Source: an uncultured Chloroflexia bacterium
GTDB lineage: Bacteria; Chloroflexota; Anaerolineae; Anaerolineales; Anaerolineaceae
Direction: 5' to 3'
Length of the DNA: 32,000 nucleotides
Assembly (NCBI GenBank): GCA_963704755.1
Contig: OY969938.1
Coordinates: 240,001-272,000 of the forward strand
Below the pieces are notes generated by a model. The model did no database searches. It was not told the origin of the DNA and saw only the letters and a program-made list of their open reading frames with translations. This document shows, one piece after another, positions 2,668 through 17,105 of the stretch. Within the stretch, counting starts at the first letter, position 1; the number at the start of each line of letters is the position of its first letter. The position numbers and the translations under genes are program-made.

Positions 2668-3285
2668 ATGGGACTTTGGGCAATCGTTCCAGTCAAACCA
2701 TTGAGAAGGGGCAGGTCGAGACTCTCTGCGGTCTTGTCCGAAGATGAACGTACCTTGTTGAACTTTACCATGCTAGGAAATACACTCAAGACCCTCTCCG
2801 AGGTTCCTGGGATTGAGCAGGTTTTGGTCGTAAGCCGGGATCCATCTGCGCTGGCGCTGGCCAGGGAATACCAGGCGCGAACAGTCCAGGAGGATGGCCA
2901 ACCGGATATCAACACGGCCCTGCAGCGGGCTACTGTGGTTGCTCAGCTTTACTCAGCACAGGAAATCTTGATCGTCCCGGCTGATTTGCCTTTGCTATCC
3001 AAAAAGGACATCGAAGAGATCATCAAAGCCGGGCAAGATAACCCTCCTGTGGTGGTGATTGCACCTGACCGCAGGAATAACAGCACAAACGCGTTGTATA
3101 TGAACCCGGCCGGCATCATCGATTACTGCTTCGGCCCCGATTCATTTCAGCAGCACCTTCAGAAGGCCCAGGAAAAAAATATCAACATAAAGATATGCCA
3201 GCTTTCCACCCTGGGGTTGGACCTGGACCTGCCGGAGGATCTCGAGTTACTCAAACAAGTGGAAGCGTTTCAATTAGAACCCTGA
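2668..3285 (+). CDS. cofC: 2-phospho-L-lactate / phosphoenolpyruvate guanylyltransferase (CofC/FbiD)
   Basis: The 205-aa ORF has GGAGG 8-12 nt upstream of its ATG. The N-terminus WAIVPVKPLRRGRSRLSAVLSEDERTLLNFTML and the ...LIVPADLPLL... motif are characteristic of CofC. Confidence 0.8.
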   Translation: MGLWAIVPVKPLRRGRSRLSAVLSEDERTLLNFTMLGNTLKTLSEVPGIEQVLVVSRDPSALALAREYQARTVQEDGQPDINTALQRATVVAQLYSAQEILIVPADLPLLSKKDIEEIIKAGQDNPPVVVIAPDRRNNSTNALYMNPAGIIDYCFGPDSFQQHLQKAQEKNINIKICQLSTLGLDLDLPEDLELLKQVEAFQLEP

Positions 3286-3378
3286 CCGTACCCGAATGGG
3301 TCTTCCAGATCGAAAACCTTTCTGGAAGAATTCCAAACCGTTACCACAGACCTATTATTACGCAATCCGGAGGACAAA

Positions 3379-4377
3379 ATGCCTGAAAGAGTCGCCTTAT
3401 ATTTACAAGATGCACACGATTTGAGAGATGGCCTGGATTATGTCCGCTATGCCGAGAAAAAGGGCTTCGAAGCCGTCTGGCAAGCCGAATCCCGGCTGGT
3501 CAGAGACGCGATCGTGCCGATGGCAGCTTACGCCGCAGTGACGGATAAGATTAAGGTTGGCTCGGGGGTAATCAACAACTGGACAAGAAATATTGGTTTG
3601 CTGGCATCCACCTTTTTGACCCTGGACGATCTGGCGCCGGGACGGATCATTTGCGGTATTGGCGCCTGGTGGGACCCGTTAGCGCGAAATGTGGGGATCG
3701 AACGGCGCAAACCGCTGCTGGCCATGAAAGAAACTATCACGGTCATGAAAAGGCTGTTGGCAATGGAGCGGGTCAGTTTCGACGGCGAATTCATCCACGT
3801 GAATGGCATCGAACTGGATGTGGTGCATGGAAGACGTGAGCCTCGGAACGTGCCCGTAATGATTGGGGCAACCGGCGACCAGATGATGGAAATGGCCGGT
3901 GAGATCGCCGATGGGGTCGTGATGAATTATTGCGTTCCACCCGAATATAATATCAAGGCGTTGGAACTGCTCGAAAAAGGGACGAAAAAAGCCGGTCGCA
4001 AATTCGATGACTTCGACCGTCCGCAACTGGTGGTCTGCTCAGTAGATGAGGATCACGACAAAGCGATTGATACGACACGGGAACTGCTGACGCAATACCT
4101 GGCCCAACAACCGCACATCGCCAAAGCTTCAGGTGTATCGATGGACATTGTGGCTCAGATCCAGTCTATCCTGGGCTGGCCGGCTACCCACGAGCAAATT
4201 CAGAAAGCCAAGTACCTGGTTCCGGACGACCTGGTTGACCGGATCACCGCATCGGGAACCCCCGCCGAAGCGCGCAAGAAAGTCGCCGAATATCGTAAAT
4301 ATGGCTGCACCTGCCCGATCCTTTATCCGGTCGGCGGCGATGTCAAACTGTTAATCGATACCTTCGCTCAGAATTGA
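3379..4377 (+). CDS. Luciferase-like monooxygenase (LLM) family oxidoreductase, Mer-like, probably F420-dependent
   Basis: The 332-aa ORF has a TIM-barrel LLM pattern ([12 protein letters not shown]..., [40 protein letters not shown]-terminal [21 protein letters not shown]). F420 dependence is inferred from similarity to the Mer/Adf/Fgd branch and from the adjacent F420 genes. Confidence 0.7.
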
Positions 4378-4415
4378 GCTTTTATACAGGAAAGTTGAAG
4401 CAGGAGGATAACGAA

Positions 4416-5195
4416 ATGATCAGTGCCTATTATCGGCCGAAATCCATCGACGAAGCCCTGGGCTTGCTTTCCGATCCTCAAAAACGTAACGTGCCGTTGG
4501 GTGGCGGAAGCGTCCTGGCCCGCCAGAAAGGCGAACAGATCGGGGTAGTGGATTTGCAGGCTTTGCCTTTGAATGAAATCAAACCGGCCGGTAATTTTAT
4601 GGAAGTCGGGGCAACCGCTACTTTACAAGACCTGTACGAATCCCTCGGGCTCCAGGACGATTTAAAAAGGGCAATTTACCACGAGACCAGTTTCAATACA
4701 CGCCAGAAGGCGACTGTCGCGGGAGCACTGGTCACGGCGGACGGGCGTTCGTCTCTTGCCAGTGCATTACTGGCATTGGATGCGGACCTGACCTGGCTGC
4801 CCGGGCCTAAATCGGTGACCTTAGGGAGTTATTACGGCCTGGGTGAAGGCGAAGGGGCTCTGATTACATCGGTACGCATTCCGCTTAATGTCAAATTGCG
4901 GGTGGACGGGGTCGGCAGGACTCCACTGGACCGGCCAGTGATCCTGGTGGCGGTGGCCCAATGGCCCGCCGGCCGGACTCGGATCGTCTTGGGCGGCTGG
5001 GGGAAACGTCCCACCCTGGCCCTGGATGGACCCGAGAGCAGCGGAATCGCGGAAGCGGTTCATAACGCTGCTTCTTCAGCCAGCGATGGGTTTGCCAGTA
5101 GTGAGTACCGGCTGAAGGCAGCCGAGAAAATCCTTCAACGCCTGATGAAAGACCTGGCTGAATCGGATGGTCGACCGGATGGAGAGGCGGTGTGA
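4416..5195 (+). CDS. Molybdenum hydroxylase FAD-binding (medium) subunit, YgfM/CoxM-like
   Basis: ATG 4416 is preceded by gcAGGAGGat. The ORF-track start at 4374 overlaps the LLM stop and adds 14 unlikely residues. The N-terminus ISAYYRPKSIDEALGLL...PLGGGSVL is the FAD_binding_5 signature of xanthine dehydrogenase/CO dehydrogenase medium subunits. At 259 aa it is about the length of E. coli YgfM. Confidence 0.8.
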   Translation: MISAYYRPKSIDEALGLLSDPQKRNVPLGGGSVLARQKGEQIGVVDLQALPLNEIKPAGNFMEVGATATLQDLYESLGLQDDLKRAIYHETSFNTRQKATVAGALVTADGRSSLASALLALDADLTWLPGPKSVTLGSYYGLGEGEGALITSVRIPLNVKLRVDGVGRTPLDRPVILVAVAQWPAGRTRIVLGGWGKRPTLALDGPESSGIAEAVHNAASSASDGFASSEYRLKAAEKILQRLMKDLAESDGRPDGEAV

Positions 5196-8100
5196 TGAAA
5201 ATCAATCTCAGCTTGAACCATGCTGAAGTCGAATGGGAAGTTGCGCCCGCAGACACCTTACTGGATGTATTACGGCAAAACGGGTATTTTGGGGTGAAGT
5301 TCGGCGGCTGTGAGAAAGGGGAATGCGGCGCCTGTACGGTATTGTTGGATGGCAGGCCGGTCAATTCCTGCTCGATGCTGGCTGCCCAGGCGGACGGGCA
5401 CGAGGTGGAAACGGTGGAGGCCATGGGCGAGCACCCTGACCAGGGCTGGAAAAAGACCGAAGGACTGCATGCGATCCAGCTTGCGCTGGTCGATAGTGGC
5501 GCGATCCAATGCGGGTACTGTACCCCGGCCTTCGCTCTAGCGGCAAAATCGCTGCTGGATGCCAACCCTGACCCGACCGAACCAGAGGTTCGCGAAGCGA
5601 TTTCGGGTGTTCTTTGCCGCTGCACCGGCTATTTAAAACCAGTGCAGGCGATTTTGCGCGCCGCCGCGATGTTACGCGGTGAAAATGTCGATGGATTTAA
5701 CGAGCCACGACCGGATATGCCGCCGATGGAGGGCTGGCCGGCCGGCAGCGTGAATGAAGAGAACCTGGGCGAACCCCTGGCACCTGCCGGAACGAACACG
5801 AGTGTGATGCCAAGGGTGACTGTTCCGATCAATATGGAACATCACTCGACCTCGCAGATTGGAAAGCCGGCCATCAAAGTGGATGCAGTCAAGCTGGTGC
5901 AAGGGAAACCAGCTTTTACGGCAGACATCGAGAAGCGCGGAATGTTGGTAGCCAAGGTGTTACACAGCCCGGTTGCACATGCCCACATCAAGAACATCGA
6001 TTTGAGCAAAGCGCGGGCCTTGCCTGGTGTGGCGGCGGTTCTTTGCTATCGCGACATCCCGCGGGTAGTTTATTCCACCGCCGGGCAGTCCGATCCCATT
6101 CCGGGCCCGTTGGATACCTTCTCGCTGGACGAAAAAATCCGCTTTGTCGGCGACCGGGTTGCCTTTGTAGCCGCGGAGACGGCGGAAATTGCCGAACAGG
6201 CCCTGAAACTCATCGATGTGGAATACGAAGAACTTCCGGCGATTATCGACCCGGCCGATGCGATGAAACCCGGTGCGATTATCATTCATGATGAACCCGA
6301 GTATGTAAATTTTGGTGATTCGGAGCCGGCCCAAAACGTGGCTGCGCGGATCAGAATCGATATCGGCGATGTAGAAAAAGGGTTTGCCGAAGCAGACCGT
6401 ATTTTCGAGGCGGATTACGAAGTGCCTAAGGTCCAGCAATCCTCGATTGAGCCGCACGTGGTGGTCACCTATTGGGATGAGGACGACCGCCTGGTCATCC
6501 GTACGAGCACCCAGGTGCCGTTCCATGCCCGGCGCATCCTGGCGCCGGTCCTGGGCTTACCCATCAAGCGCATCCGGGTGATCAAGCCGCGTATCGGCGG
6601 CGGATTTGGCGGCAAGCAAGAAGTCTTGATCGAGGACGTGGCGGCTCATTTGACGATCGCAACCGGGCGGCCGGTCATGTTCGAATATTCACGCGAAGAA
6701 GAATTCACGGCGGCCCGTTCGCGCCATCCCATGCGCCTGCACATGAAAACCGGCGTCAAACTGGATGGAACGATTACGGCCAATGAAATGTATGCCCTCT
6801 CGGACACCGGCGCTTATGGCTGCCACGGATTGACCGTCACCGGCAATACCGGGCACAAGGCGATGGCGCTGTACGTGGGTGATGGACCCTATCGCAAATC
6901 ACCAAACATCCGTTTTTATTCGGATATCGTGTACACCAACACGCCGCCGGCGGGGGCATATCGCGGCTACGGTGTTCCGCAGGGCTTCTGGCCGGTCGAG
7001 CGCCACATGGAAATGATCTGCCGCGAACTCGGCCTGGATGCGATTGATTTCCGGCTCAAGAACACCGTGCGAGCCGGCGAATTGCATCCTTTCAGCACTG
7101 CCTGGAGCGAAGGGCGCGAGCCGGTACCGGAAATCATTCAGACGGTTGGCCTGGAAGAATGCGTACGCCAGGGTAAAGCCGTTATCGGCTGGGACCAGAA
7201 ATACAAGAACCCGGATTGGCAAGTCGTTCCGGGAAAGCCCTACTTGCGTAAGGGAATTGGTATCGCGATGGTGATGCAGGGAACGGCTATCCCTTACCTG
7301 GATATGGGCGGTGCCAGTATCAAGATGAACGATGACGGCTCGTTCAATTTGCTGATCGGTGCGACCGACCTGGGCACCGGCTCGGACACAGTCCTGGCCC
7401 AGATGGCCGGGGAAGTGCTGGGTGTCCCGGTCGAAGATATCCTGGTGTATTCATCGGATACGGATTTCACTCCGTTCGACAAAGGTGCCTATGCCTCATC
7501 GACGACGTATATCTCCGGTGCAGCGGTAGTCCGGGCTGCCGAACAGGCCGCCGAGCGGATCAAGGCCCGGGCGGTCAAGATGTTCAACGCCCAGGATACG
7601 GGCACAGAGGTCCAGAGCGAGGACATTTTGCTGGAGGACCGGCACGCCATTGCGCCGGACCATCGCACGCTTAGCCTGGCAGAAATTGCGCTGAATTCGC
7701 TGCACCATACCGAACAGGAACAGATTATGGGGATCGGGTCGTTCTACTCGCCGGTATCACCACCGCCATTCGCGGCTCAATTCGCCGAAGTAACGGTGGA
7801 TGTCGAAACCGGCAAAGTGACGGTCGATCACCTGGTCATGGCGGTAGATTCCGGAATTATCGTCAATCCGCTGACGGCTTCTGGCCAAATCGAGGGCGGT
7901 ATGACCCAGGCGCTGGGTTATGCGGTCTGCGAAGAAATGGTGTATGATGAAAAAGGCCGGGCTCGTGAAAAAGATCTTGAGGATTACCACATTTTCCGGG
8001 CAGACGAAATGCCGGCTTTGGATACCATTTTCGTGCAGACCTTTGAGCCTTCTCATCCTTTTGGCGTCAAAGCCGTAGCCGAAATACCGATGGACGGTGT

Positions 8101-8200
8101 CGCTCCGGCGGTCGGGAACGCAATCCTGGATGCTTGCGGTGCGAGTGTTTACCACAACCCAACCACACCCGAAAGGGTTTGGCGCGCCTTACAGAAATAA
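5195..8200 (+). CDS. Molybdenum hydroxylase fused [2Fe-2S] + molybdopterin-binding subunit (XdhD-like architecture)
   Basis: Both Fe-S motifs are present in the N-terminus: CEKGECGACTVLLDGRPVNSC and IQCGYCTPAF...LCRCTGY. A ~60-aa Pro/Gly-rich linker follows, then the a/b-hammerhead (KVLHSPVAHAHIKNIDLSKARALPGVAAV), the Moco motif RIGGGFGGKQE and the active-site region AVAEIPMDG. The start is ATG 5195 (1-nt overlap with the upstream TGA) or GTG 5192. Confidence 0.9.
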   Translation: MKINLSLNHAEVEWEVAPADTLLDVLRQNGYFGVKFGGCEKGECGACTVLLDGRPVNSCSMLAAQADGHEVETVEAMGEHPDQGWKKTEGLHAIQLALVDSGAIQCGYCTPAFALAAKSLLDANPDPTEPEVREAISGVLCRCTGYLKPVQAILRAAAMLRGENVDGFNEPRPDMPPMEGWPAGSVNEENLGEPLAPAGTNTSVMPRVTVPINMEHHSTSQIGKPAIKVDAVKLVQGKPAFTADIEKRGMLVAKVLHSPVAHAHIKNIDLSKARALPGVAAVLCYRDIPRVVYSTAGQSDPIPGPLDTFSLDEKIRFVGDRVAFVAAETAEIAEQALKLIDVEYEELPAIIDPADAMKPGAIIIHDEPEYVNFGDSEPAQNVAARIRIDIGDVEKGFAEADRIFEADYEVPKVQQSSIEPHVVVTYWDEDDRLVIRTSTQVPFHARRILAPVLGLPIKRIRVIKPRIGGGFGGKQEVLIEDVAAHLTIATGRPVMFEYSREEEFTAARSRHPMRLHMKTGVKLDGTITANEMYALSDTGAYGCHGLTVTGNTGHKAMALYVGDGPYRKSPNIRFYSDIVYTNTPPAGAYRGYGVPQGFWPVERHMEMICRELGLDAIDFRLKNTVRAGELHPFSTAWSEGREPVPEIIQTVGLEECVRQGKAVIGWDQKYKNPDWQVVPGKPYLRKGIGIAMVMQGTAIPYLDMGGASIKMNDDGSFNLLIGATDLGTGSDTVLAQMAGEVLGVPVEDILVYSSDTDFTPFDKGAYASSTTYISGAAVVRAAEQAAERIKARAVKMFNAQDTGTEVQSEDILLEDRHAIAPDHRTLSLAEIALNSLHHTEQEQIMGIGSFYSPVSPPPFAAQFAEVTVDVETGKVTVDHLVMAVDSGIIVNPLTASGQIEGGMTQALGYAVCEEMVYDEKGRAREKDLEDYHIFRADEMPALDTIFVQTFEPSHPFGVKAVAEIPMDGVAPAVGNAILDACGASVYHNPTTPERVWRALQK

Positions 8201-8243
8201 CTAAAATATTGGTAACCTCATTGGAATGAGTTGAAAGGAAGAC

Positions 8244-9038
8244 ATGAATATTTATCGTGCCCTCAATGAACTGATCGACAACGAAAACACCGGCGCACTG
8301 TGCACGATTATTAGCACCAAAGGATCGACGCCCAGGCACGAGGGCAGCAAAATCCTGGTTAACGAAGATGGCAGCTTTATCGGCTCGGTCGGCGGAGGGG
8401 AAGTCGAACAGCGGGTGTTGAAAGAAGCCCTTGATTCAATGGTCGATGGCAGAACCCGCCGGCTGAGCTATAGCCTGGTGGACCCAGCCCGAGGCGATGC
8501 AGGTGTTTGCGGCGGGACCGTGGAGGTTTACGTGGAGCCAATTTTACCCAAGCCGACCCTGGTCGTGATCGGCGGTGGCCATGTGGGGAAGGCGGTTGTC
8601 CACCTGGCTAAATGGTTGGGTTTTTATACCGTGGTCAGTGACGACCGGGAGGAATTTTGCACCGTGGAGCAAAACCCTGACGCGGATGCACTGTACCCGG
8701 TGAAAATGGAAGAGTTGATCCATCAACTCAAGTTCAACGTCACCACATATGTGGTTTTAACCACCCGAGGAAGTAACGTGGATGTAGACGGCCTGGAGCC
8801 GATTCTTCACAGTCGGGCCGGATATATCGGTGTCATTGGCTCACGTCGCAGATGGTTGGCGACGAAGGAAGGGCTGATCAACAAGGGTGTACCCGAAGAG
8901 CTGATCAAGAAAGTCCATTCTCCCATTGGGCTGGAATTGAATGCTGAAACACCCGAAGAAATAGCGGTCAGTATATTGTCAGAGATAATAATGTTGAGAA
9001 ACGGCGGTAATGGCGCCCAGATGAAACTTGAGGGATAA
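8244..9038 (+). CDS. xdhC: XdhC/CoxI-family molybdenum cofactor insertion/maturation protein
   Basis: The 264-aa ORF has an N-terminal XdhC_CoxI pattern (ALCTIISTKGSTPRHEGSKILVNEDGSFIGSVGGGEVE). It also has the C-terminal Rossmann-like domain (LVVIGGGHVGKAVVHLAKWLGFYTVVSDDR). Confidence 0.85.
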   Translation: MNIYRALNELIDNENTGALCTIISTKGSTPRHEGSKILVNEDGSFIGSVGGGEVEQRVLKEALDSMVDGRTRRLSYSLVDPARGDAGVCGGTVEVYVEPILPKPTLVVIGGGHVGKAVVHLAKWLGFYTVVSDDREEFCTVEQNPDADALYPVKMEELIHQLKFNVTTYVVLTTRGSNVDVDGLEPILHSRAGYIGVIGSRRRWLATKEGLINKGVPEELIKKVHSPIGLELNAETPEEIAVSILSEIIMLRNGGNGAQMKLEG

Positions 9039-9043
9039 ACGCA

Positions 9044-10465
9044 ATGTGGAATGAAGTTGTCAGTGCAGCAAATATCCCGGATGTTTTATCCGTCCTTGAC
9101 CAAAAGCAGGAAAAGGCGCGGATTGTAGCCGGGGCTACGGATTTGATCCTGGAAATCGAACGAGGCGTTCGCAAAGGGATCGAGACAGTGGTGGATGTTT
9201 CGCGAATTGCCGGGTTGGACTTGATCCATCTGGACGAGGATGGCTGGATCCACCTTGGGCCATTGGTGACCCACAATCACTGTGTAGGATCGAAAATGAT
9301 CCGCGAAATGGCTTTCCCGCTGGCGCAGGCCTGCTGGGAAGTTGGTTCGCCCCAAATCCGCAATCGGGGTACGATCGCCGGTAATTTGGTCACAGGGTCG
9401 CCGGCCAACGATACCATCACGCCATTGATGGCAATAGGCGCGGTTTTGACCCTGGCGAGCGTCCATGGGGAGCGGCGTATTCCGCTGGCCGAATTCTACA
9501 AGGGTGTTCGTAAAGTGGATCTGAGGCCGGATGAGATGGTGGTGGATATCGCTTTCCCGGCTCTGCAAGCGGATCAAAAAGGTACATTTACCAAGTTTGC
9601 CCTGCGGCGTGCCCAGGCGATTTCTCTGGTCAATACCACCATCATACTGAAAATTGAAAAGGGCGTCATTCAACAAGCTGCCATCACCATGGGCGCCGTT
9701 TCGCCAACGATTATCCATGCTACTGAAGCTGAAAATTACATAGTGGGGAAGACCTTGACCGATGAAGTCGTGGCCAGGGCAGGAGATCTGGCGATGGAAG
9801 CGGCCAGGCCGATCAGCGACGTACGCGCCTCGGATGTTTACCGAAAACGGATCGTACGCGTTATCGTGAAGCGAGCGCTTGAATCGTTAAGGTCTGGCAG
9901 CGAAAGGGCCACTTTCCCGGAGGATCCGGTTTTGCTGTGGGGCAGCAATGGGTATCGGGTCAGTCGTGTCGAGAAAACATATTCGCATAGCCAAAAAGAG
10001 ACAATCGTAACCCGGATCAATGGGAAGGAATATACCTTCGAAACCGGCCAGGATAAAACCTTGCTGCGGCTGCTGCGCGAAGAAGGGCAGTTGACCGGAA
10101 CGAAAGAGGGCTGCGCGGAAGGGGAGTGCGGGGCCTGTACGGTGTTCCTGGATGGGATCGCCGTTATGAGCTGTATGGTCCCGGCGGTCCGTGCCCATGG
10201 GGCCGAAATCACCACGGTTGAAGGATTGGCCGACGCAGAGAAACTCCATCCAGTTCAAGAGGCCTTTGTTCAGGATGGCGGCGTCCAATGTGGCTATTGC
10301 ACACCCGGGTTTTTGATGTCGGCGACCAAGCTTCTCGAAGAAAAACCTACCCCATCCCAAGAGGAAATAAAACAGGCAATTACCGGCAATTTGTGCCGAT
10401 GCACCGGTTATTACAAAATCATTGAAGCAATCGAGGATGCCGCAGAATTAGCCAAGGGGAGATAA
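9044..10465 (+). CDS. Molybdenum hydroxylase fused FAD-binding + [2Fe-2S] subunit
   Basis: The N-terminal ~300 aa form the FAD_binding_5/CO_deh_flav_C part (ARIVAGATDLILEIERG..., IRNRGTIAGNL). The C-terminal part, from roughly nt 10007, is the 2Fe-2S part (CAEGECGACTVFLDGIAVMSC, VQCGYCTPGF, LCRCTGYYKI). The gene starts 5 bp after xdhC. Confidence 0.9.
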   Translation: MWNEVVSAANIPDVLSVLDQKQEKARIVAGATDLILEIERGVRKGIETVVDVSRIAGLDLIHLDEDGWIHLGPLVTHNHCVGSKMIREMAFPLAQACWEVGSPQIRNRGTIAGNLVTGSPANDTITPLMAIGAVLTLASVHGERRIPLAEFYKGVRKVDLRPDEMVVDIAFPALQADQKGTFTKFALRRAQAISLVNTTIILKIEKGVIQQAAITMGAVSPTIIHATEAENYIVGKTLTDEVVARAGDLAMEAARPISDVRASDVYRKRIVRVIVKRALESLRSGSERATFPEDPVLLWGSNGYRVSRVEKTYSHSQKETIVTRINGKEYTFETGQDKTLLRLLREEGQLTGTKEGCAEGECGACTVFLDGIAVMSCMVPAVRAHGAEITTVEGLADAEKLHPVQEAFVQDGGVQCGYCTPGFLMSATKLLEEKPTPSQEEIKQAITGNLCRCTGYYKIIEAIEDAAELAKGR

Positions 10466-10468
10466 TCT

Positions 10469-10843
10469 ATGCCAAAGTACAGCTCATTCGGAGCCGAAGA
10501 CCAGGAACAAATTCGTAAAGCAAGAAACGAAGTTCATCCAATCTGGAGGGGGGTTGGCGTTATCCTGATCGTCCTGACCCCGGTTTTGGGCTATTTTGCT
10601 GCACTGGTTGTATTGGATGAAAATACAAAAAATAAGTGGTTTGCAATTCCCCAGGATTTTTTGTATAAAGGGGCAGACCCATTGCTCCTTATGAAAATTG
10701 GGCTAACCATTATCCTGGGATTGTTAATCTACTTCGTCTTGCAGTTTTTGACGTTTCTTTTGTACAGTCTGTTTGGGCCTTCGCGTTACGGCCCGTATGA
10801 TGTTCCTCCCGTTGCCTATAAGGGTAAAAAACATACGCGCTAA
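10469..10843 (+). CDS. Small predicted membrane protein (2 hydrophobic helices), unknown function
   Basis: The 124-aa ORF starts 3 bp after the upstream stop, with a GGGAGA RBS. Its hydrophobic segments are GVGVILIVLTPVLGYFAALVVL and IGLTIILGLLIYFVLQFLTFLLYSLF. I recognise no family. Its coding status rests on operon position and clean TM-like sequence. Confidence 0.55.
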   Translation: MPKYSSFGAEDQEQIRKARNEVHPIWRGVGVILIVLTPVLGYFAALVVLDENTKNKWFAIPQDFLYKGADPLLLMKIGLTIILGLLIYFVLQFLTFLLYSLFGPSRYGPYDVPPVAYKGKKHTR

Positions 10844-10881
10844 GATTTCATTGAAATCTTATTATTAGGAGAGTAATTTTT

Positions 10882-13102
10882 ATGGTGGCTATAGGACAAT
10901 CCGTAACCCGGATTGATGCAGTTGGAAAAGTCATGGGTGAAACCCGCTATCCGGGTGATTTTAATATGCCGGGACAGGTATTCATGAAAGTAGTGTTTTC
11001 CGGGAGAGCCCATGCCATCATCCGGAGTATTGATAAATCACGTGCAATGGAATTGCCAGGTGTCCTGGCGGTCTTGACCGCAGAGGATGTACCAGTCAAC
11101 GAATATGGCCTGGGCACTCCGGACCAACCGGTGTTGTGCGGACCGGGAAGTATCAAACCATACGCAGATCGCGTCCGGTTTGCCGGAGATCAGGTTGCTT
11201 TGATTCTGGCCGAAAATGAGAAAATCGCGAGAGAGGCAGAAAAATTACTGGACATCCAATATGAGGATATCCCGGCAATTTACAACCCGCTCGAGGCCCT
11301 CGAAGAGGGCAGCCTAAAGGTTCACCCGGATTATGGCTCGAACGTTTTTTGCCATTATCGTATCCGCCGGGGTGATGTCGATGAGGCATTCAAGTCGGCG
11401 GATGTGGTGATCGAAGGGGTATACGAGACGCCGGCCCAGGAGCATGCCTATTTGCAGCCAGAAGCAGGCATCAGCCATATCGACGAGGAAGGCCGCATTA
11501 CGGTGGTGGTTGCCGGGCAGTGGACCCACGAGGACCGCGAGCAAATCGCCCATGCGATGAACATGCCGGAAGAGAAGATCCGGGTGATTTACCCGGCTAT
11601 TGGCGGCGCTTTTGGCGGGCGCGAGGACATGTCCGTGCAGATCGTCCTGGCGCTCTCAACCTGGAAACTGCACGAAATGGGCGTCGACCGGCCGGTCAAA
11701 ACTGTCTGGAGCCGAGAAGAATCAATCGTGGGGCATCACAAACGCCATCCATTTCATATTCATACACGCTGGGCGGCCACGAAAGAAGGAAAACTCCTGG
11801 CTGCCGAAGTGGACATGGTAGAAGACGGCGGGGCATACGTTTATACTTCGCCCAAAGTGCTTGGAAATGCTACATTAATGTGCACCGGGCCGTATAACAT
11901 TCCCAACGTGAAAGTCGATGCCCGCGCGGTATATACCAACAATTTACCCAACGGCGCTTTCCGTGGTTTCGGTGGGCCGCAAGCAGCATTTTCAGCAGAA
12001 ATGCAAATGGATAAACTGGCCGAAGCCCTGGGTATGGACCCGGTGGAAATCCGCATGCGCAACCTTTTCCAGGACGGCGATATCCTCTCGATGGGCAGTC
12101 CACTGCCCAAAGGAGTGACGATCAAGCAGGTGGTTGAAAAGGCGGCCTTAGCCGGCGGATGGGTCAAAGGCGAGAAAGGCTGGACGCGCCCGCAGGGATA
12201 TCGCTCTGATGTACCCGGGAAACCGCATCTCAAACGCGGTGTCGGGTTTGCCTGCTCCTACAAAAATGTTGGTTTTTCCTTTGGCGCGCCAGAACGATCG
12301 TGGGCACGAGTTCGAGGTGTACGGCAGCGCCGAGATCGAGAAGGCTGTACTCTACCATGCCGGTGCGGATGTTGGGCAAGGCGCCCATACGGTTTTTGCC
12401 CAAATGGCCGCCGAAGCGTTAGGAATACCGGTCCAGAAGGTCGCAGTGAATGCGTCTGATACAGCTTCGTCCCAAACATCGGGCAGTGCTTCCGCTTCGA
12501 GGATGACGTTTATGGCGGGCAACTCGATCAAAGGAGCCGCCGAGATGGCTTTGGCCAAGTGGAAGAATGAAGAACGCCCAGCCATTGCTGAATTTATGTA
12601 TCGGCCGCCGGCGACAACACCGATGGATCCCGAAACAGGAAAATCGGAACCGAATTTTTCGTATGGATACGTTGCCGAGGCGATTGAAGTTGAGGTGGAT
12701 ACCGAAACGGGTGTGATCCGCCTGGCCAACGTAATCTGTGCAAACGATGTCGGCAAAGCGATCAACCCGCAACTGGTCCAGGGCCAAATCGAAGGCGCAG
12801 TGGTCCAGGTGGCCGGTTATGCTTCCCTGGAGAATTTTGTCCAGCGGGATGGGCGTGTATTCACCAATACTCTCTCGACCTACCTCATTCCCACAGTTTT
12901 GGATATTCCCGATAAGGTGGAAAGCCTTATTCTAGAATACCCGGATCCACGTGGCCCCTGGGGCGCGCGGGGTATGGGTGAAATGCCATTCCTGCCCTTT
13001 GTTCCGGCAGTAGCCAGTGGGCTGCACGAGGCCACGGGAGTTTGGTTCAACCAGTTCCCCTTTACCCCCGAAAGAGTCCTTTTTGGTTTGGATCCAAAAT
13101 AG
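10882..13102 (+). pseudogene. Xanthine dehydrogenase-family molybdopterin-binding large subunit, interrupted by a +1 frame change near 12304-12310 (ORF pieces 10882..12459 and 12209..13102)
   Basis: Frame 1 carries the hammerhead (AHAIIRSIDKSRAMELPGVLAV), GGAFGGRED and ...KNVGFSFGAPERSWA, then Arg/Cys-rich nonsense to TGA 12457-12459. Frame 2 resumes with EFEVYGSAEIEKAVLYHAGADVGQGAHT from 12308 and continues through GARGMGEMP to the stop at 13102. Together the pieces make about 740 aa of continuous homology. This could be a sequencing error, a true pseudogene or a split subunit. Confidence 0.7.
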
Positions 13103-13114
13103 CCGGGAGATAAG

Positions 13115-13942
13115 ATGAGTGTTCCCGGGCTGAGAGTAGTTGTCCGCGGTGGAGGCGACCTAGGCAGCGGCGTAGTATTACGGTTGCATCGCATCGGGGT
13201 CAAGGTCATGGTGGCGGAATTAGATCACCCCCTGGTGGTTCGTCGCAAAGTGGCCTTTGCCGAAGCGATCTATTCGAAAGAAATTGCCATCGAAGATGCC
13301 ATTGGTGTGTTAGCCGAGACGGCAGATGAAGCCAGCGATTTGTTCGCAGAACGAAAGATACCGGTGATGATCGATCCGGATCTTGCGGTTTTGGAATGGT
13401 TCCGGCCGCAAGTGATTGTGGATGCACGGTTATTGAAGCGCCAGCTCGAACCCACCAGCGTCATTGCCCGGATGGTCATTGGCCTGGGACCCGGATTTAC
13501 CGCCGGCAAGGATTGCGATGCCGTGGTCGAAACCAAACGAGGGCCTACCCTGGGGCGGGTCATCTGGCAGGGACAGGCGGAGCCGGATTCGCGCATGCCT
13601 GAAATGGTGCTGGGGCACGTCGAGGACCGGGTCTTACGCGCGCCGGCTGATGGCCTGGTTTGCAACCATTGCGAGATCGGGCAAAAGGTGCGCAACGGCC
13701 AGCTTTTGTCCGATGTCAACGGCCTGGGTATCTACGCCAAATTCGATGGGGTGATCCGTGGAATTGTACATGATGGCCTGGAAGTACAAAAGGGCACCAA
13801 GATTGGCGACGTAGACCCGCGCAACGATCCCCAATTGTGTTACCAAGTTTCCGATAAAGCCCTGGCTATCGGCGGAGGCGTGACCGAAGCTATCCTTAGC
13901 CAGCAAATTTTTCGTGAAGTGTTAGGCGAAACACCCAAATGA
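13115..13942 (+). CDS. yqeB: Selenium-dependent molybdenum hydroxylase system protein, YqeB/EF2563 family
   Basis: The 275-aa ORF begins VVVRGGGDLGSGVVLRLHRIGVKVMVAELDHPLVVRRKVAFAEAIY. This matches my recollection of the YqeB-family (TIGR03309) signature. It sits directly after a hydroxylase large subunit and is translationally coupled (ATGA) to yqeC. Confidence 0.7.
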   Translation: MSVPGLRVVVRGGGDLGSGVVLRLHRIGVKVMVAELDHPLVVRRKVAFAEAIYSKEIAIEDAIGVLAETADEASDLFAERKIPVMIDPDLAVLEWFRPQVIVDARLLKRQLEPTSVIARMVIGLGPGFTAGKDCDAVVETKRGPTLGRVIWQGQAEPDSRMPEMVLGHVEDRVLRAPADGLVCNHCEIGQKVRNGQLLSDVNGLGIYAKFDGVIRGIVHDGLEVQKGTKIGDVDPRNDPQLCYQVSDKALAIGGGVTEAILSQQIFREVLGETPK

Positions 13943-15288
13943 ATATCAGCGAAGCTCTGCGAGCGGACCGTCGTTTGCGACTGGCCATTGTCGGCGGCGG
14001 TGGGAAGACGGCCGCCATGTTTGGCCTGGCCCGTGAATACAACGGGCCGGTTATATTGACCGCCAGTGCACACCTGGCCGCCGAGCAAGCCCGTCTTGCC
14101 GACCGGCATTTCATTGTCGAAAAACCAGAAGAGATCGAGGCGATCGCTTCCAAAGGAATCAGGGATATTACTTTGTTTACCGGGCCGGTCGATCAAAAGA
14201 GCCGGTCGAAGGGATTGGATCCGGCTTGTTTAGAAACGCTGCACCAGATCGCGGACCGGCTGGACCTGCCCATTATCGTCGAGGCGGATGGTTCGCGCTG
14301 CCGGCCGCTCAAAGCGCCTTATGATCACGAACCGCCAATACCGGCCTGGGCAGAACAGGTATTGGTGGTGTGTGGCCTCTCAGCGCTTGGCCGGTTCTTG
14401 AACGAAGATACGGTATATAACGCAGAAACCTTTGCAAAGATCGCCCATGCCGAATGCGATACCCCGATCCGGATTGAGCACATCCTGGCCGTGCTGAAAG
14501 ACCCGGCGGGCGGGTTGAAGAATATCCCGGCGGGAGCCGAGAAGATCGCCCTTTTGAACCAGTTGGACCGGGTTGAGGATGAGGCCTTACTCTGCGAATC
14601 TCTCAAGGAATTGGCGCAGACCTATGATTGTGTCCTGGCGGGATCTATGCAATTGCCTGGCACCGGGGAGGTACGCGTCGACCGGCGCATCGAGCCGGTT
14701 GCCGGGGTTATCCTGGCGGCCGGAAATGCAGAACGCTATGGGAAGCCTAAACAGCTTCTAAAATGGAACGAGAAGGTTTTTATCCGTCATGTAGCAGAAA
14801 ACGCGCTGGAGGCCGGTTTACGGCCTGTAGCGGTGGTTGTAGGTGCATATGCCGACGAAGTGGCAGCGGCGGTTGCGGATCTGCCGGTAATAATTTGCCC
14901 CAATCCGGATTGGCAGACAGGCCAATCGACTTCGCTCAAAACTGGGGTGGAGGCGTTGGATTCGTATTGCGGCGGGGCAATCTTTTTGATGAGCGATATG
15001 CCCCAGGTTCCTGTTTCGCTGCTGCGTACGTTGATAGATAAGGCCCAGTCTGACCCCGCCGACATTCTATCGACGAGGGTCAATGGTCACCGGGTAAATC
15101 CGGTGTTCTTTAGCCGGAAATCATTTCCCAACTTGAAAACAGTGCACGGGGATAAAGGCGGCCGAGATTTATTTGGCCAATTTAAGGTTCAATGGCAGGA
15201 TTGGGATGATCCCTTGCTGGAGCTGGACATCGACACGCCGGCTGATTACGAAAAATTTTTGGAACTGAGTCGTGTCCGTGAACGGTGA
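13939..15288 (+). CDS. yqeC: Fusion protein: YqeC-family selenium-dependent hydroxylase accessory protein (N-terminal part) + MocA/YgfJ-like nucleotidyltransferase (C-terminal part, from about nt 14695)
   Basis: The N-terminal part has a P-loop-like LAIVGGGGKTAAMFGLA and IIVEADGSR, as in YqeC (TIGR03172, from recall). The C-terminal ~195 aa are NTP_transf_3-like (GVILAAGNAERYGKPKQLLKW, NPDWQTGQSTSLKTG, LMSDMPQV). The ATG overlaps the yqeB stop (ATGA at 13939-13942). Confidence 0.7.
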   Translation: MNISEALRADRRLRLAIVGGGGKTAAMFGLAREYNGPVILTASAHLAAEQARLADRHFIVEKPEEIEAIASKGIRDITLFTGPVDQKSRSKGLDPACLETLHQIADRLDLPIIVEADGSRCRPLKAPYDHEPPIPAWAEQVLVVCGLSALGRFLNEDTVYNAETFAKIAHAECDTPIRIEHILAVLKDPAGGLKNIPAGAEKIALLNQLDRVEDEALLCESLKELAQTYDCVLAGSMQLPGTGEVRVDRRIEPVAGVILAAGNAERYGKPKQLLKWNEKVFIRHVAENALEAGLRPVAVVVGAYADEVAAAVADLPVIICPNPDWQTGQSTSLKTGVEALDSYCGGAIFLMSDMPQVPVSLLRTLIDKAQSDPADILSTRVNGHRVNPVFFSRKSFPNLKTVHGDKGGRDLFGQFKVQWQDWDDPLLELDIDTPADYEKFLELSRVRER

Positions 15289-15892
15289 AAGCAATCAGAA
15301 CCGCATCGGTGCAGTGGTATTGGCTGCGGGCCTTTCCACCCGCATGGGAGTGCCGAAAATGGCCCTGCCGTGGAAGGATGCGACGGTGTTGGGCAGCGTA
15401 CTCCAGGAGCTGGCAAAGGCGCACCTGGCCAGGACGGTGGTTGTCACTGGCGGAGCCAGGCAGATTGTCGAAGGTATTTGCGCGGACTATCCGGTGCGAA
15501 CCGTTTTCAACCCTGATTTTGGTAATGGAGAAATGACGGACTCGATCCGGGTGGGGATGGAGGCGCTGCCAAAAGAACTGGATGCTGTATTGATCGTCCT
15601 GGGGGATCAACCGCAAATCCGGGCGGAGACGATCTCGGGTTTGATCGATTTTTACAAAGCGACGGGCAGTTCCATCGTGGTGCCGTCCTACAACATGCAT
15701 CGCGGGCATCCCTGGTTGATTGCTCCGGGCCTATGGGATGAGCTAAAACAACTCAGCCCGGAGGATACCATGCGAGATTTTTTGAAACGGCACAGCGAAG
15801 AGATTGCCTATTTTGTGGTGGATTCGGCCGAAATTATGGCAGATTTAGATACTTTTGCCGACTATATCCGGGCAAAAAGCGAAAATTCGTGA
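15272..15892 (+). CDS. mocA: Molybdenum cofactor cytidylyltransferase (MocA/YgfJ family), second copy
   Basis: The 206-aa ORF has the canonical motifs VVLAAGLSTRMGVPKMALPW, NPDFGNGEMTDSI and VLGDQPQI. A GTG start at 15272 overlaps the upstream gene by 17 nt, and no alternative in-frame ATG precedes the LAAG motif. Confidence 0.8.
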   Translation: MSVNGESNQNRIGAVVLAAGLSTRMGVPKMALPWKDATVLGSVLQELAKAHLARTVVVTGGARQIVEGICADYPVRTVFNPDFGNGEMTDSIRVGMEALPKELDAVLIVLGDQPQIRAETISGLIDFYKATGSSIVVPSYNMHRGHPWLIAPGLWDELKQLSPEDTMRDFLKRHSEEIAYFVVDSAEIMADLDTFADYIRAKSENS

Positions 15893-15926: not shown

Positions 15927-17105
15927 TTATTTGCTAATTGCTGTAACCAACGCATTAATATATCGTGTATTCAGTGTGCCCGCCGGATCATTGGCTATGT
16001 TTACGTCCGGTTGGATACCGTTGCCAGAGATAGGGGGATTCAACCCGGGAACCCACCATTTTGCCGAAGTAACGTGCAAGGATGCACCATCGCTCAGGTC
16101 ATAGACAAGCTGGATCGAATCCTTTCCGTAAGTGGGCTGGCCAATTACCAGAGCGCGGGAATTTACCTGCAGCGCGCCGGTGATAATTTCGGCGGCGCTG
16201 GCGGTGTTGTGGTTGACGAACACGAATAAAGGCAGCCCGGCGAATGGCCCATCATCGGTGGTTGAAAAGCTATCCACCGGCTTGTCTTTATATTGCTGGT
16301 CCATGATTGGAACGCCGGACTTCAAAAAGAGCTTTGCTATCTTGATCCCGGCATCCACCAAACCGCCGCCATTGTCGCGCAGGTCCAAAACGAAATCGAC
16401 GGCGCCCTGTGATTGCAGGTCGGAAATAGCTTTTTGAATCTCGTCGGGCGTGGTCGCGGCGATCACATTGACCTGGACCAGGCCGACTTGCTTGTCTTCG
16501 GCGAGCAGATTCCAGGTCACGCTGGGCAAAGGAATTTCCTGACGCTTAACCGAGACGGTCAATTGTTCGCCGGTGACATCGCGGCGAATGAGCAATTTAA
16601 CGCTGCTGCCCACTTTCCCACGTAAAGCAGCCTGGACCTGGTCCGAAGTGGTATCGGTATTGACTTGTAATTGGTCGATTTGTAGCAGGATATCACCATC
16701 TTGCAAGCCGGCCTCTGCAGCGGGCGAACCATCGTAAGGGTAAATACGGAACAAGCCGGAAGAATCCTGCTCGACCCGAGCCCCAATGCCGCCATATTGG
16801 CCGGCAAGCTGATCCGATTGAAGTTCGTGCTGGGGAGGCTCGACCAGAACTGTATATGGGTCGTTGAGCTTCTGCAGCACCCCTTCGATCATGTCGTATT
16901 GCAAGTCGGTGCTGGATGGCAGTTGCCCCAGGAACGACTTTTCGAGGATGCCGTATGCCTCGCCAAAAAGGGAGTATTTATTAAACTGCGTATAGCCATT
17001 GCCTACATAAAAACCAATCATAAATACACCACAACACAAAATCAAAACCAACCCAATCACAATAGCTAAATTCAATTTTGTGGTTTTGACTTCGATTTCT
17101 CTCAT
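15927..17105 (-). CDS. ctpA: S41 family C-terminal processing peptidase with N-terminal membrane anchor and PDZ domain
   Basis: The 392-aa ORF has a TM helix (LAIVIGLVLILCCGVFMIGFYV) and a PDZ-like region (GGIGARVEQD...GSPAAEAGLQDGDILLQID). Catalytic Ser/Lys contexts are present (VNHNTASAAEII; TYGKDSIQ). Confidence 0.85.
   Translation of the reverse strand: MREIEVKTTKLNLAIVIGLVLILCCGVFMIGFYVGNGYTQFNKYSLFGEAYGILEKSFLGQLPSSTDLQYDMIEGVLQKLNDPYTVLVEPPQHELQSDQLAGQYGGIGARVEQDSSGLFRIYPYDGSPAAEAGLQDGDILLQIDQLQVNTDTTSDQVQAALRGKVGSSVKLLIRRDVTGEQLTVSVKRQEIPLPSVTWNLLAEDKQVGLVQVNVIAATTPDEIQKAISDLQSQGAVDFVLDLRDNGGGLVDAGIKIAKLFLKSGVPIMDQQYKDKPVDSFSTTDDGPFAGLPLFVFVNHNTASAAEIITGALQVNSRALVIGQPTYGKDSIQLVYDLSDGASLHVTSAKWWVPGLNPPISGNGIQPDVNIANDPAGTLNTRYINALVTAISK

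Follow-up and report, generated by a model that had tools for sequence, protein, structure and literature searches.

The locus described here raises the question of what a luciferase-like (LLM-class) oxidoreductase is doing in a gene string that combines the supply of coenzyme F420 with enzymes and maturation factors of the molybdenum cofactor (Moco). The window, that is, the whole stretch of 32,000 nucleotides analysed (contig OY969938.1, positions 240,001 to 272,000, from an uncultured Chloroflexia bacterium of the Anaerolineaceae), carries the LLM gene at 3379-4377 on the + strand, and an earlier note on the same DNA had taken this gene as the head of a hydroxylase operon. Our analysis places it at the end of a different module, made up of ssnA and the F420-supply genes, and leads us to propose that its product is an F420H2-dependent 2,8-dioxopurine reductase coupled to SsnA, standing in the place of YgfK in an anaerobic purine/urate cluster. 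We hold the chances for and against this proposal to be evenly balanced.

The LLM protein and its cofactor

The LLM open reading frame (ORF), read directly from the sequence, begins with an ATG, ends at a TGA (4375-4377) and encodes a product of 332 amino acids, residues 10-311 of which match PF00296 with 218.8 bits (gathering threshold 27.9). The 16 best NCBIfam matches were all F420-dependent LLM families, with E values ranging from 7.5e-56 (Mer, NF002619) to 2e-14, whereas the best FMN-dependent family, SsuD, reached 7.7e-10; the protein attained no NCBIfam subfamily cut-off and fits no curated subfamily. Its closest sequences in the PDB were Mer (E = 6e-42), followed by FGD1 and Adf. Foldseek comparison with the PDB of an AlphaFold2 model built on 65 sequences (mean predicted local distance difference test score, pLDDT, of 93.6) placed first the F420-bound Mer of M. 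jannaschii (8qpl; template modelling score, TM, of 0.89; root mean square deviation 2.4 Å). Ranks 1 to 30 were all F420-dependent LLM enzymes, with FGD and Adf at TM values of about 0.78, and FMN monooxygenases did not exceed 0.76. The closest relative is Mer (8QPL, 1Z69), at about 30% identity, while FGD1, Adf, FGD2 and the mycobacterial LLM families belong to the same superfamily and share the predicted cofactor site but are more distant (33-128 bits, all below cut-offs). The Mer-like and probably F420-dependent character that the earlier note had assigned to the protein was borne out, and the placement among F420- and FMN-dependent subfamilies that it had called for fell on the F420 side.

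The residues lining the active site add to this picture. In M. jannaschii Mer, Gly61-Val62, located after strand beta3, form a non-prolyl cis-peptide backing F420, and the pterin site comprises Glu6, Asp96, a carboxamide at the end of beta6 and Phe233; Glu6, at the end of beta1, is essential, the E6Q variant keeping 0.4% of kcat (Gehl et al., PMC11094777). Profile alignment matched the Gly-Val backstop with G63-V64 of the LLM protein, a conservation of the site in which the cis conformation is predicted, and the beta6 carboxamide with N183, whereas Glu6 is replaced by Tyr8 and Asp96 by Trp98 within a GAWWDP motif. Tyr8, Val64, Trp97, Trp98 and Asn183 are invariant in the 83 orthologues considered below, G63 is retained in 75 of the 83, and 126 of the 332 positions do not vary at all. 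The alignment thus suggests a protein in which the cofactor scaffold has been kept and the substrate site rebuilt. Because the family ranking, the matches to F420-bound folds, the Gly-Val backstop and the presence of npdG, cofE and cofC in the same gene string converge, we regard the protein as very probably F420-dependent, a (beta/alpha)8-barrel luciferase-like oxidoreductase that would take its hydride from F420H2.

Gene order and transcription around the LLM gene

To place the gene in its genomic context we used a sample of 83 non-redundant, species-level Anaerolineales loci, in which the denominators given below are the loci with adequate flanking sequence. The LLM orthologues, 77-93% identical, come from Anaerolineales that include Anaerolinea thermophila, Bellilinea caldifistulae and Pelolinea submarina, and the LLM protein is the most conserved one of the cluster, with a median identity of 81.6% over the 83 orthologues against 42-68% for the cluster neighbours. 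The three isolates present the constant order ssnA-npdG-cofE-(ligT)-cofD-cofC-LLM; in A. thermophila there is a 4-bp overlap between cofC and the LLM gene, and a string of 14 genes has tiny junctions throughout, and in Pelolinea the YgfM/XdhD/XdhC trio is absent, the LLM gene being followed by a CBS-pyrophosphatase and an XDH-type (xanthine dehydrogenase) enzyme. The gene directly upstream of the LLM gene was cofC in 66 of 75 loci and ssnA in seven, and ssnA lay within 7.5 kb upstream in 52/60. The gap between cofC and the LLM gene had a median of 21 bp, being at most 30 bp in 44 of 66 loci, an overlap in ten and, as is the case in the window, no shorter than 90 bp in 13. Downstream, a YgfM-like gene was found within 1.8 kb in 26 of 63 loci, and in 31 of the 63 no recognisable cluster gene followed, the next gene often being cinA on the opposite strand or an unrelated gene. 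This puts the LLM gene at the end of an ssnA plus F420-supply module, with the hydroxylase genes as a frequent but optional module downstream. As a general design the LLM gene does not head a hydroxylase operon, since cofC precedes it in most loci and YgfM/XdhD follow it only in a minority. The linkage to the hydroxylase genes on which the earlier note had relied is real in the window as an adjacency, at 38 bp, but is far less conserved than the cofC-LLM pair.

Six loci showed a second order, cofC, a GltD-like gene, ssnA and the LLM gene. More distant LLM relatives (44-48% identity) adjoin amidohydrolases too, namely one of the SsnA superfamily overlapping the LLM stop (locus L089 in our numbering), a hydantoinase/allantoinase-like enzyme (L091) and an 8-oxoguanine deaminase (L093). 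The link between SsnA and the LLM enzyme hence recurs in a second gene order and, among these relatives, beside ring-opening amidohydrolases, in agreement with the proposal of Li et al. 2025 discussed below.

Several side observations belong to these loci. The gene preceding ssnA-LLM in the six loci of the second order (L041, L042, L044, L066, L075, L080) encodes a GltD/YgfT-like pyridine-nucleotide oxidoreductase that matches only residues 455-851 of E. coli YgfK, and three of these loci (L042, L044, L075) contain a second ssnA copy. A 165-residue hotdog-fold gene (4HBT thioesterase superfamily) separates ygfM from the LLM gene, whose stop it often overlaps, in L007 (10990-11487) and 15 other loci. 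A family II pyrophosphatase with CBS domains, absent from the window, is frequent in the clusters (L006, 11031-12377, and many others), placed behind the LLM gene or else between xdhD and xdhC, and may remove the pyrophosphate released by the nucleotidyl transfers of CofC and MocA. A gene of 818-821 residues, found after the LLM gene in two distant relatives, was considered as a diverged molybdenum enzyme and discarded: it has no family match, its N-terminus is apparently hydrophobic, and it does not resemble the XdhD-like protein.

The junctions in the window itself were as the earlier note had given them. The YgfM-like gene (4416-5195, + strand) starts at ATG 4416, 38 bp after the LLM stop at 4377, with a ribosome-binding site (GGAGG) at 4403-4407; the TGATG at 5193-5197 makes its stop overlap the ATG (5195) of the gene for the iron-sulfur and Moco subunit, for which GTG 5192 is an alternative start; and the spacers before cofC and before the LLM gene measure 154 bp (2514-2667) and 93 bp (3286-3378). 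The same source had reported no hairpin after the LLM gene, where we found a weak 5-bp stem (GCTCA-gaat-TGAGC, 4366-4379) that overlaps the LLM stop and is followed by TTTTAT, stems of this type being close to chance (30 found against 19.2 +/- 4.7 expected). At minimum energy, 4355-4420 folds so that the ribosome-binding site of YgfM is base-paired to the 3' end of the LLM gene (z = -2.3, equalled by 3 of 200 shuffles), and such a pairing, if formed, would make translation of YgfM dependent on ribosomes completing the LLM gene. The 93-bp spacer contains a 9-bp hairpin (3301-3309/3321-3329) without a U tract, the fold of the whole spacer having a z of -0.9. None of the hairpins at the LLM stop, at the LLM-ygfM junction or in the 93-bp spacer is a convincing terminator, and given this and the 38-bp gap, co-transcription of the LLM gene with the YgfM/XdhD-like genes is plausible.

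The two long spacers had also been put forward as the places where promoters could sit. This argument from gap length is weak, because the genome of the window has wide gaps throughout the gene string, and a scan for sigma-70-like promoters found none in either spacer, with a total for the region at chance level (12 found, 11.2 expected); the scan is uninformative in itself, as promoters of Chloroflexota may differ. The 154-bp spacer contains a perfect TATAAT without a matching -35 element. A riboswitch or other known RNA in the spacers was rejected after an Rfam search of the whole window, which returned no match at the gathering threshold. Relatives with long cofC-LLM spacers carry a hairpin at the equivalent place, to which some add a U run: we counted six with both, four of them (L053, L038, L034, L067) with a strong, terminator- or attenuator-like GCCAC...GUGGC stem that shows compensatory changes before the U run. 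The counterpart in the window (3301-3329) has the hairpin without the U run. Some lineages may therefore terminate or attenuate transcription before the LLM gene, and since a minority of relatives have the terminator-like hairpin between cofC and the LLM gene, an independent LLM transcript may exist in the window.

A candidate role in reductive urate breakdown

A metabolic setting for the LLM enzyme is provided by the reductive urate pathway, which was elucidated as recently as 2025 and is now being built into probiotics for use against hyperuricaemia. In this pathway XdhD-YgfM (DOPDH in Liu et al. 2025) converts urate to 2,8-dioxopurine (Li et al. 2025, PMC12507026; Liu et al. 2025 preprint), and YgfK (DOPOR) is an NADPH:2,8-dioxopurine oxidoreductase (Liu et al. 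2025 preprint), in whose stead C. difficile uses UacX. In E. coli assays, product was obtained only when SsnA, the ring opener, accompanied YgfK (Li et al. 2025, PMC12507026), and both molybdenum enzymes of the pathway require the YqeB/YqeC/SelD selenium trait (Li et al. 2025; Liu et al. 2025). In the SsnA neighbourhood network of Li et al. 2025 (Life Metab, PMC12507026) the Chloroflexota lack both YgfK and UacX and have instead a PF00296 'putative F420-dependent' enzyme, which these authors named, in one sentence based on the neighbourhood and without experiment, a putative yanthine (2,8-dioxopurine) reductase. Our search of the literature on F420 in Anaerolineae and on F420-dependent dioxopurine reductases found nothing beyond that study.

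The upper part of the pathway is represented in the window by SsnA, a YgfM/XdhD-like enzyme, an XDH-type hydroxylase and XdhC, YqeB, YqeC and MocA homologues; both SsnA, at the left edge, and the link to this pathway had escaped the earlier note. The ssnA fragment (1-384, + strand) comprises the last 125 or so codons of a gene that starts upstream of the window, and matches NF005540 (E = 1.5e-28) and TIGR03314 (E = 1.1e-26) over profile positions 339-443, other amidohydrolase families being no better than the 1e-12 level; the full-length SsnA of A. thermophila, encoded at the same position, passes both SsnA cut-offs (511.7 against 444 and 466.3 against 455.5). The clusters of E. coli and of gut anaerobes share with the window homologues of ssnA, ygfM, xdhD, XDH, yqeB, yqeC and mocA and the order ssnA ... 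ygfM-xdhD. Where E. coli has ygfK-ssnA-ygfM-xdhD, however, the window has no ygfK and a block npdG-cofE-cofC-LLM (with cofD in relatives) between ssnA and ygfM. E. coli YgfK used as tblastn query (E <= 1e-6) had no match in the window and, among 86 loci, only the partial match of its middle domain to the GltD-like protein in six of them; UacX was not used as a query, and the lack of both in Chloroflexota is the finding of Li et al. 2025. The LLM protein resembles YgfK (E. coli, C. sporogenes) and UacX (C. difficile) in its ssnA and XdhD-type neighbours, in the predicted reductive dearomatisation of 2,8-dioxopurine and in the expected coupling to SsnA, but has no sequence or fold relationship with them: YgfK is an Fe-S/FAD/FMN protein of about 1030 residues and UacX a PydA-like FMN enzyme, while the LLM protein is a TIM barrel of 332 residues whose predicted hydride donor is F420H2 in place of NAD(P)H or ferredoxin.

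The partner enzyme consists of the YgfM-like FAD-binding subunit, with a PF00941 match of 68.9 bits, and an XdhD-like protein (5195-8200, + strand) in which two [2Fe-2S] domains are fused to the molybdopterin subunit and all the Pfam domains are present, a candidate urate/2,8-dioxopurine oxidoreductase. From residue 1 onwards the YgfM-like protein can be aligned over its whole length with YgfM of E. coli (26% identity, both 259 residues, E = 3e-13). The XdhD-like protein is 37% identical to E. coli XdhD over 989 residues, scoring 562 bits against 453 bits for E. coli XdhA, and has the XdhD-specific loop with Glu606 (Glu639 in the window), absent from XdhA and from the second molybdenum subunit of the window; Glu606 of E. 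coli XdhD was singled out by Li et al. 2025 (PMC12507026). Its N-terminal 2x[2Fe-2S] domain (5195-5680) keeps all the cluster cysteines, unlike E. coli XdhD (L087, 25317-25800), which has lost most of them. By analogy with E. coli, the candidate reaction is the dehydroxylation of urate, and the 'hydroxylated heterocycle' of the earlier note gives way accordingly, the characterised XdhD homologue being a dehydroxylase that turns urate into 2,8-dioxopurine (Li et al. 2025; Liu et al. 2025). One of the possibilities offered by the note, the reduction of a heterocycle by the LLM enzyme with NpdG replenishing F420H2, coincides with the candidate function that we favour.

From the fold, the residues and the synteny, which are observed, we infer the use of F420, the substrate, the coupling to SsnA and the direction of the XdhD-like reaction, and with these the following route can be drawn. 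The XDH-type enzyme (9044-13102) would oxidise hypoxanthine or xanthine to urate, and the YgfM/XdhD-like enzyme (4416-8200) would strip urate of its 6-oxo group to give 2,8-dioxopurine. The LLM enzyme would then pass the hydride of F420H2 to the electron-poor C6 of 2,8-dioxopurine, breaking its aromaticity, and SsnA would hydrolyse the reduced ring at once, pulling the unfavourable reduction forward. NpdG would recharge F420 from NADPH, and CofC and CofE, together with a CofD presumably encoded elsewhere in the genome, would build the cofactor tail. Hydride transfer to C6 would resemble the delivery of hydride by Mer to an iminium carbon, both enzymes placing it, as predicted for the LLM enzyme, onto a carbon bonded to a ring nitrogen, and the paired invariant tryptophans found where Mer has Asp96 would suit the stacking of a purine.

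A number of observations weigh against this proposal. The genes of the lower pathway, hyuA, ygeW/uacY, ygeY, ygeX and yqeA, which accompany the upper part in E. coli and gut-anaerobe clusters, were without a tblastn match at E <= 1e-6, both in the window and in the 10 kb flanking each locus on either side. In about 13% of the well-flanked loci ssnA is missing from the vicinity, and in 12 of 47 it is present with no Moco hydroxylase within 10 kb. The linkage of the LLM gene to the cof genes is tighter than that to ssnA, as would be expected of a housekeeping F420 enzyme too, and for a catabolic enzyme it is unusual to see a median identity as high as 82% across an order, which may point to a more central role. 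The partner subunits fall well short of their curated models (45 bits against a cut-off of 241.5 for YgfM, TIGR03312; 680 against 1101.9 for XdhD, TIGR03313). Finally, the frameshift in the molybdenum subunit of the XDH-type enzyme and the absence of cofD, both described below, may mean that the cluster is not fully functional in this genome, or may reflect an assembly error. An M20 peptidase encoded upstream was examined as a substitute for YgeY and set aside as being of the dipeptidase type (NF006053 above cut-off; 47.7 bits with the YgeY model).

Part of these observations would be accommodated by a housekeeping F420 enzyme, for example an F420-reducing dehydrogenase or a step of cofactor biosynthesis, whose purine neighbours are incidental. 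The adjacency to cofC is indeed the most conserved feature of the loci (66/75), persisting in relatives of 48% (L088) and 44% (L093) identity, the LLM protein is the most conserved of the cluster, and some loci lack ssnA or the hydroxylase. NpdG already supplies F420H2, however, the match to the FGD and Adf family models is poor (65 bits, the cut-off being 420), and ssnA or related ring-opening amidohydrolases recur beside the LLM gene in several independent gene orders. In L093, moreover, the LLM gene shares its cof string with a nitroreductase like the C-terminal domain of FbiB, a known kind of dehydro-F420-0 reductase; the specific idea that the LLM protein is the dehydro-F420-0 reductase missing beside a CofE without that domain is for this reason unlikely, and a housekeeping role as a whole we consider improbable while giving it some weight. 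The operon reading of the earlier note would put the LLM gene in the promoter-proximal position on a transcript dedicated to the hydroxylase, its product reducing the freshly hydroxylated heterocycle or merely sharing an F420 pool with the hydroxylase. The 38-bp gap with its good ribosome-binding site, the overlapping stop and start that follow, the wider upstream gap with its hairpin and the six relatives in which a U run follows that hairpin, compatible with a separate LLM transcript, are all in its favour. It has to face the facts that YgfM/XdhD follow the LLM gene only in 26/63 loci and are missing altogether from Pelolinea, that the gene coming next is in many loci an unrelated one or lies on the other strand, that the cofC-LLM spacer is mostly 30 bp or shorter (44/66) and in ten loci an overlap, that the 93-bp gap holds no promoter-like site, and that the characterised XdhD homologue acts on urate as a dehydroxylase and not as a hydroxylase. 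We find this reading decidedly unlikely.

Two further identities bear on the chemistry of the protein rather than on its neighbours. The database names of the orthologues (JGI, NCBI) say Mer, and Mer is the best match in NCBIfam, in the PDB and by fold; a genuine methylene-tetrahydromethanopterin (or methylene-tetrahydrofolate) reductase was nonetheless rejected, being extremely improbable for a protein below both Mer equivalog cut-offs (189.8 against 276 for NF002619; 182.2 against 348.7 for TIGR03555) in which the catalytic Glu6 and the pterin-contacting Asp96 have been lost in 83 of 83 orthologues, in a bacterial host and with no genes of a C1 pathway in the neighbourhood. PF00296, for its part, is dominated by FMN-dependent two-component monooxygenases that need a separate flavin reductase, and membership of this family is what such an identity has to offer. 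The FMN-dependent LLM families do not go beyond the 7.7e-10 level, as against 1e-56 to 1e-14 for the F420 families, the fold matches to FMN enzymes are clearly poorer, no flavin reductase gene lies nearby, and the named hosts are anaerobic fermenters. The family and fold rankings led us to reject this possibility as well, as a very improbable one.

The remaining genes and the meaning of the cluster

Between the left edge of the window and 15892 every gene is on the + strand, which gives a single-strand cluster of about 16 kb. Downstream of ssnA, npdG (508-1185) encodes the NADPH-dependent F420 reductase (TIGR01915, 203.8 bits against a cut-off of 149.8; PF03807), its ORF opening at GTG 463 with ATG 508 as the likely start. 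It is followed by cofE (1191-1961; TIGR01916, 273.4 against 180.65; PF01996), a stand-alone F420-0:gamma-glutamyl ligase without the FbiB C-terminal domain, by a LigT-like 2H phosphoesterase gene (1968-2513; PF13563, 52.5 bits) and by cofC (2668-3285; TIGR03552, 155 bits against 105; PF01983), of the 2-phospho-L-lactate guanylyltransferase family. The LigT-like gene is present between cofE and cofD/cofC in 12 of 60 related loci, and in the distant relative L093 this slot is occupied by the FbiB-C-terminal-like nitroreductase (7807-8406); the slot may mark a lineage-specific chemistry of the F420 tail. No cofD was found between cofE/ligT and cofC or elsewhere in the 32-kb window, while 53 of 60 relatives have it between cofE/ligT and cofC and seven related loci are cofD-less like the window.

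Beyond the XdhD-like gene lies that of an XdhC-family Moco insertion and maturation factor (8244-9038; PF02625, PF13478; NF045664, E = 1.7e-69). The second, XDH-type hydroxylase is encoded by a gene for an FAD plus 2x[2Fe-2S] subunit (9044-10465; PF00941, PF03450, PF01799; TIGR02963, E = 5.2e-95) and one for a molybdopterin subunit (10882-13102), separated by a gene for a small predicted membrane protein of 124 residues (10469-10843) that has no match in Pfam or NCBIfam and occurs at the equivalent position in 12 related loci. The molybdopterin subunit gene has pucD/XdhA-type matches on both halves and is interrupted by a 1-nt frameshift near 12313, the A. thermophila orthologue being matched in frame 1 as far as 12312 (residues 1-476) and from 12314 onwards in frame 2 (residues 477-735); the break (12300-12320) is either a sequencing error or the mark of a recent pseudogene. 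The string closes with yqeB (13115-13942; TIGR03309, 305.4 bits against 220), for selenium-dependent Moco maturation, yqeC fused to a MocA-like cytidylyltransferase (13939-15288; TIGR03172, 147.8 against 73.05 over residues 15-227; TIGR03310, 140.9 over residues 256-439) and, as the last + strand gene, a second MocA/YgfJ-like cytidylyltransferase (15272-15892; TIGR03310, 160 bits, just below the cut-off of 186.45). The next gene, for a CtpA-type protease (15927-17105), is on the - strand. In this string npdG, cofE, cofC, yqeB and yqeC pass their curated cut-offs.

The idea of an F420-dependent enzyme acting at this step in Chloroflexota is already in print (Li et al. 2025), and what we add to it is a residue-level argument, a quantified synteny and the reassignment of the LLM gene to the ssnA/F420 module. 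Going one step further, we tentatively suggest, with slightly more doubt than confidence, that the LLM clade represents the first F420H2-dependent reductase of a purine ring, a non-homologous replacement of YgfK/UacX, and that the Anaerolineales have kept the F420-tail genes and npdG mainly for its sake. The extreme conservation of the protein (126 invariant residues, median identity of 82%) could then stem from an obligate partnership with SsnA. A direct test of the candidate is feasible, as it involves one protein of 332 residues, SsnA and a commercially available substrate. If the proposal is true, a small, single-domain reductase free of Fe-S clusters would be a third and mechanistically distinct solution to the dearomatisation step. 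Anaerolineae are abundant in anaerobic digesters and sediments, where their F420 has been without a defined function, and the LLM enzyme would give the cofactor a concrete role, the first defined physiological one, in these anaerobic, fermentative Chloroflexota.

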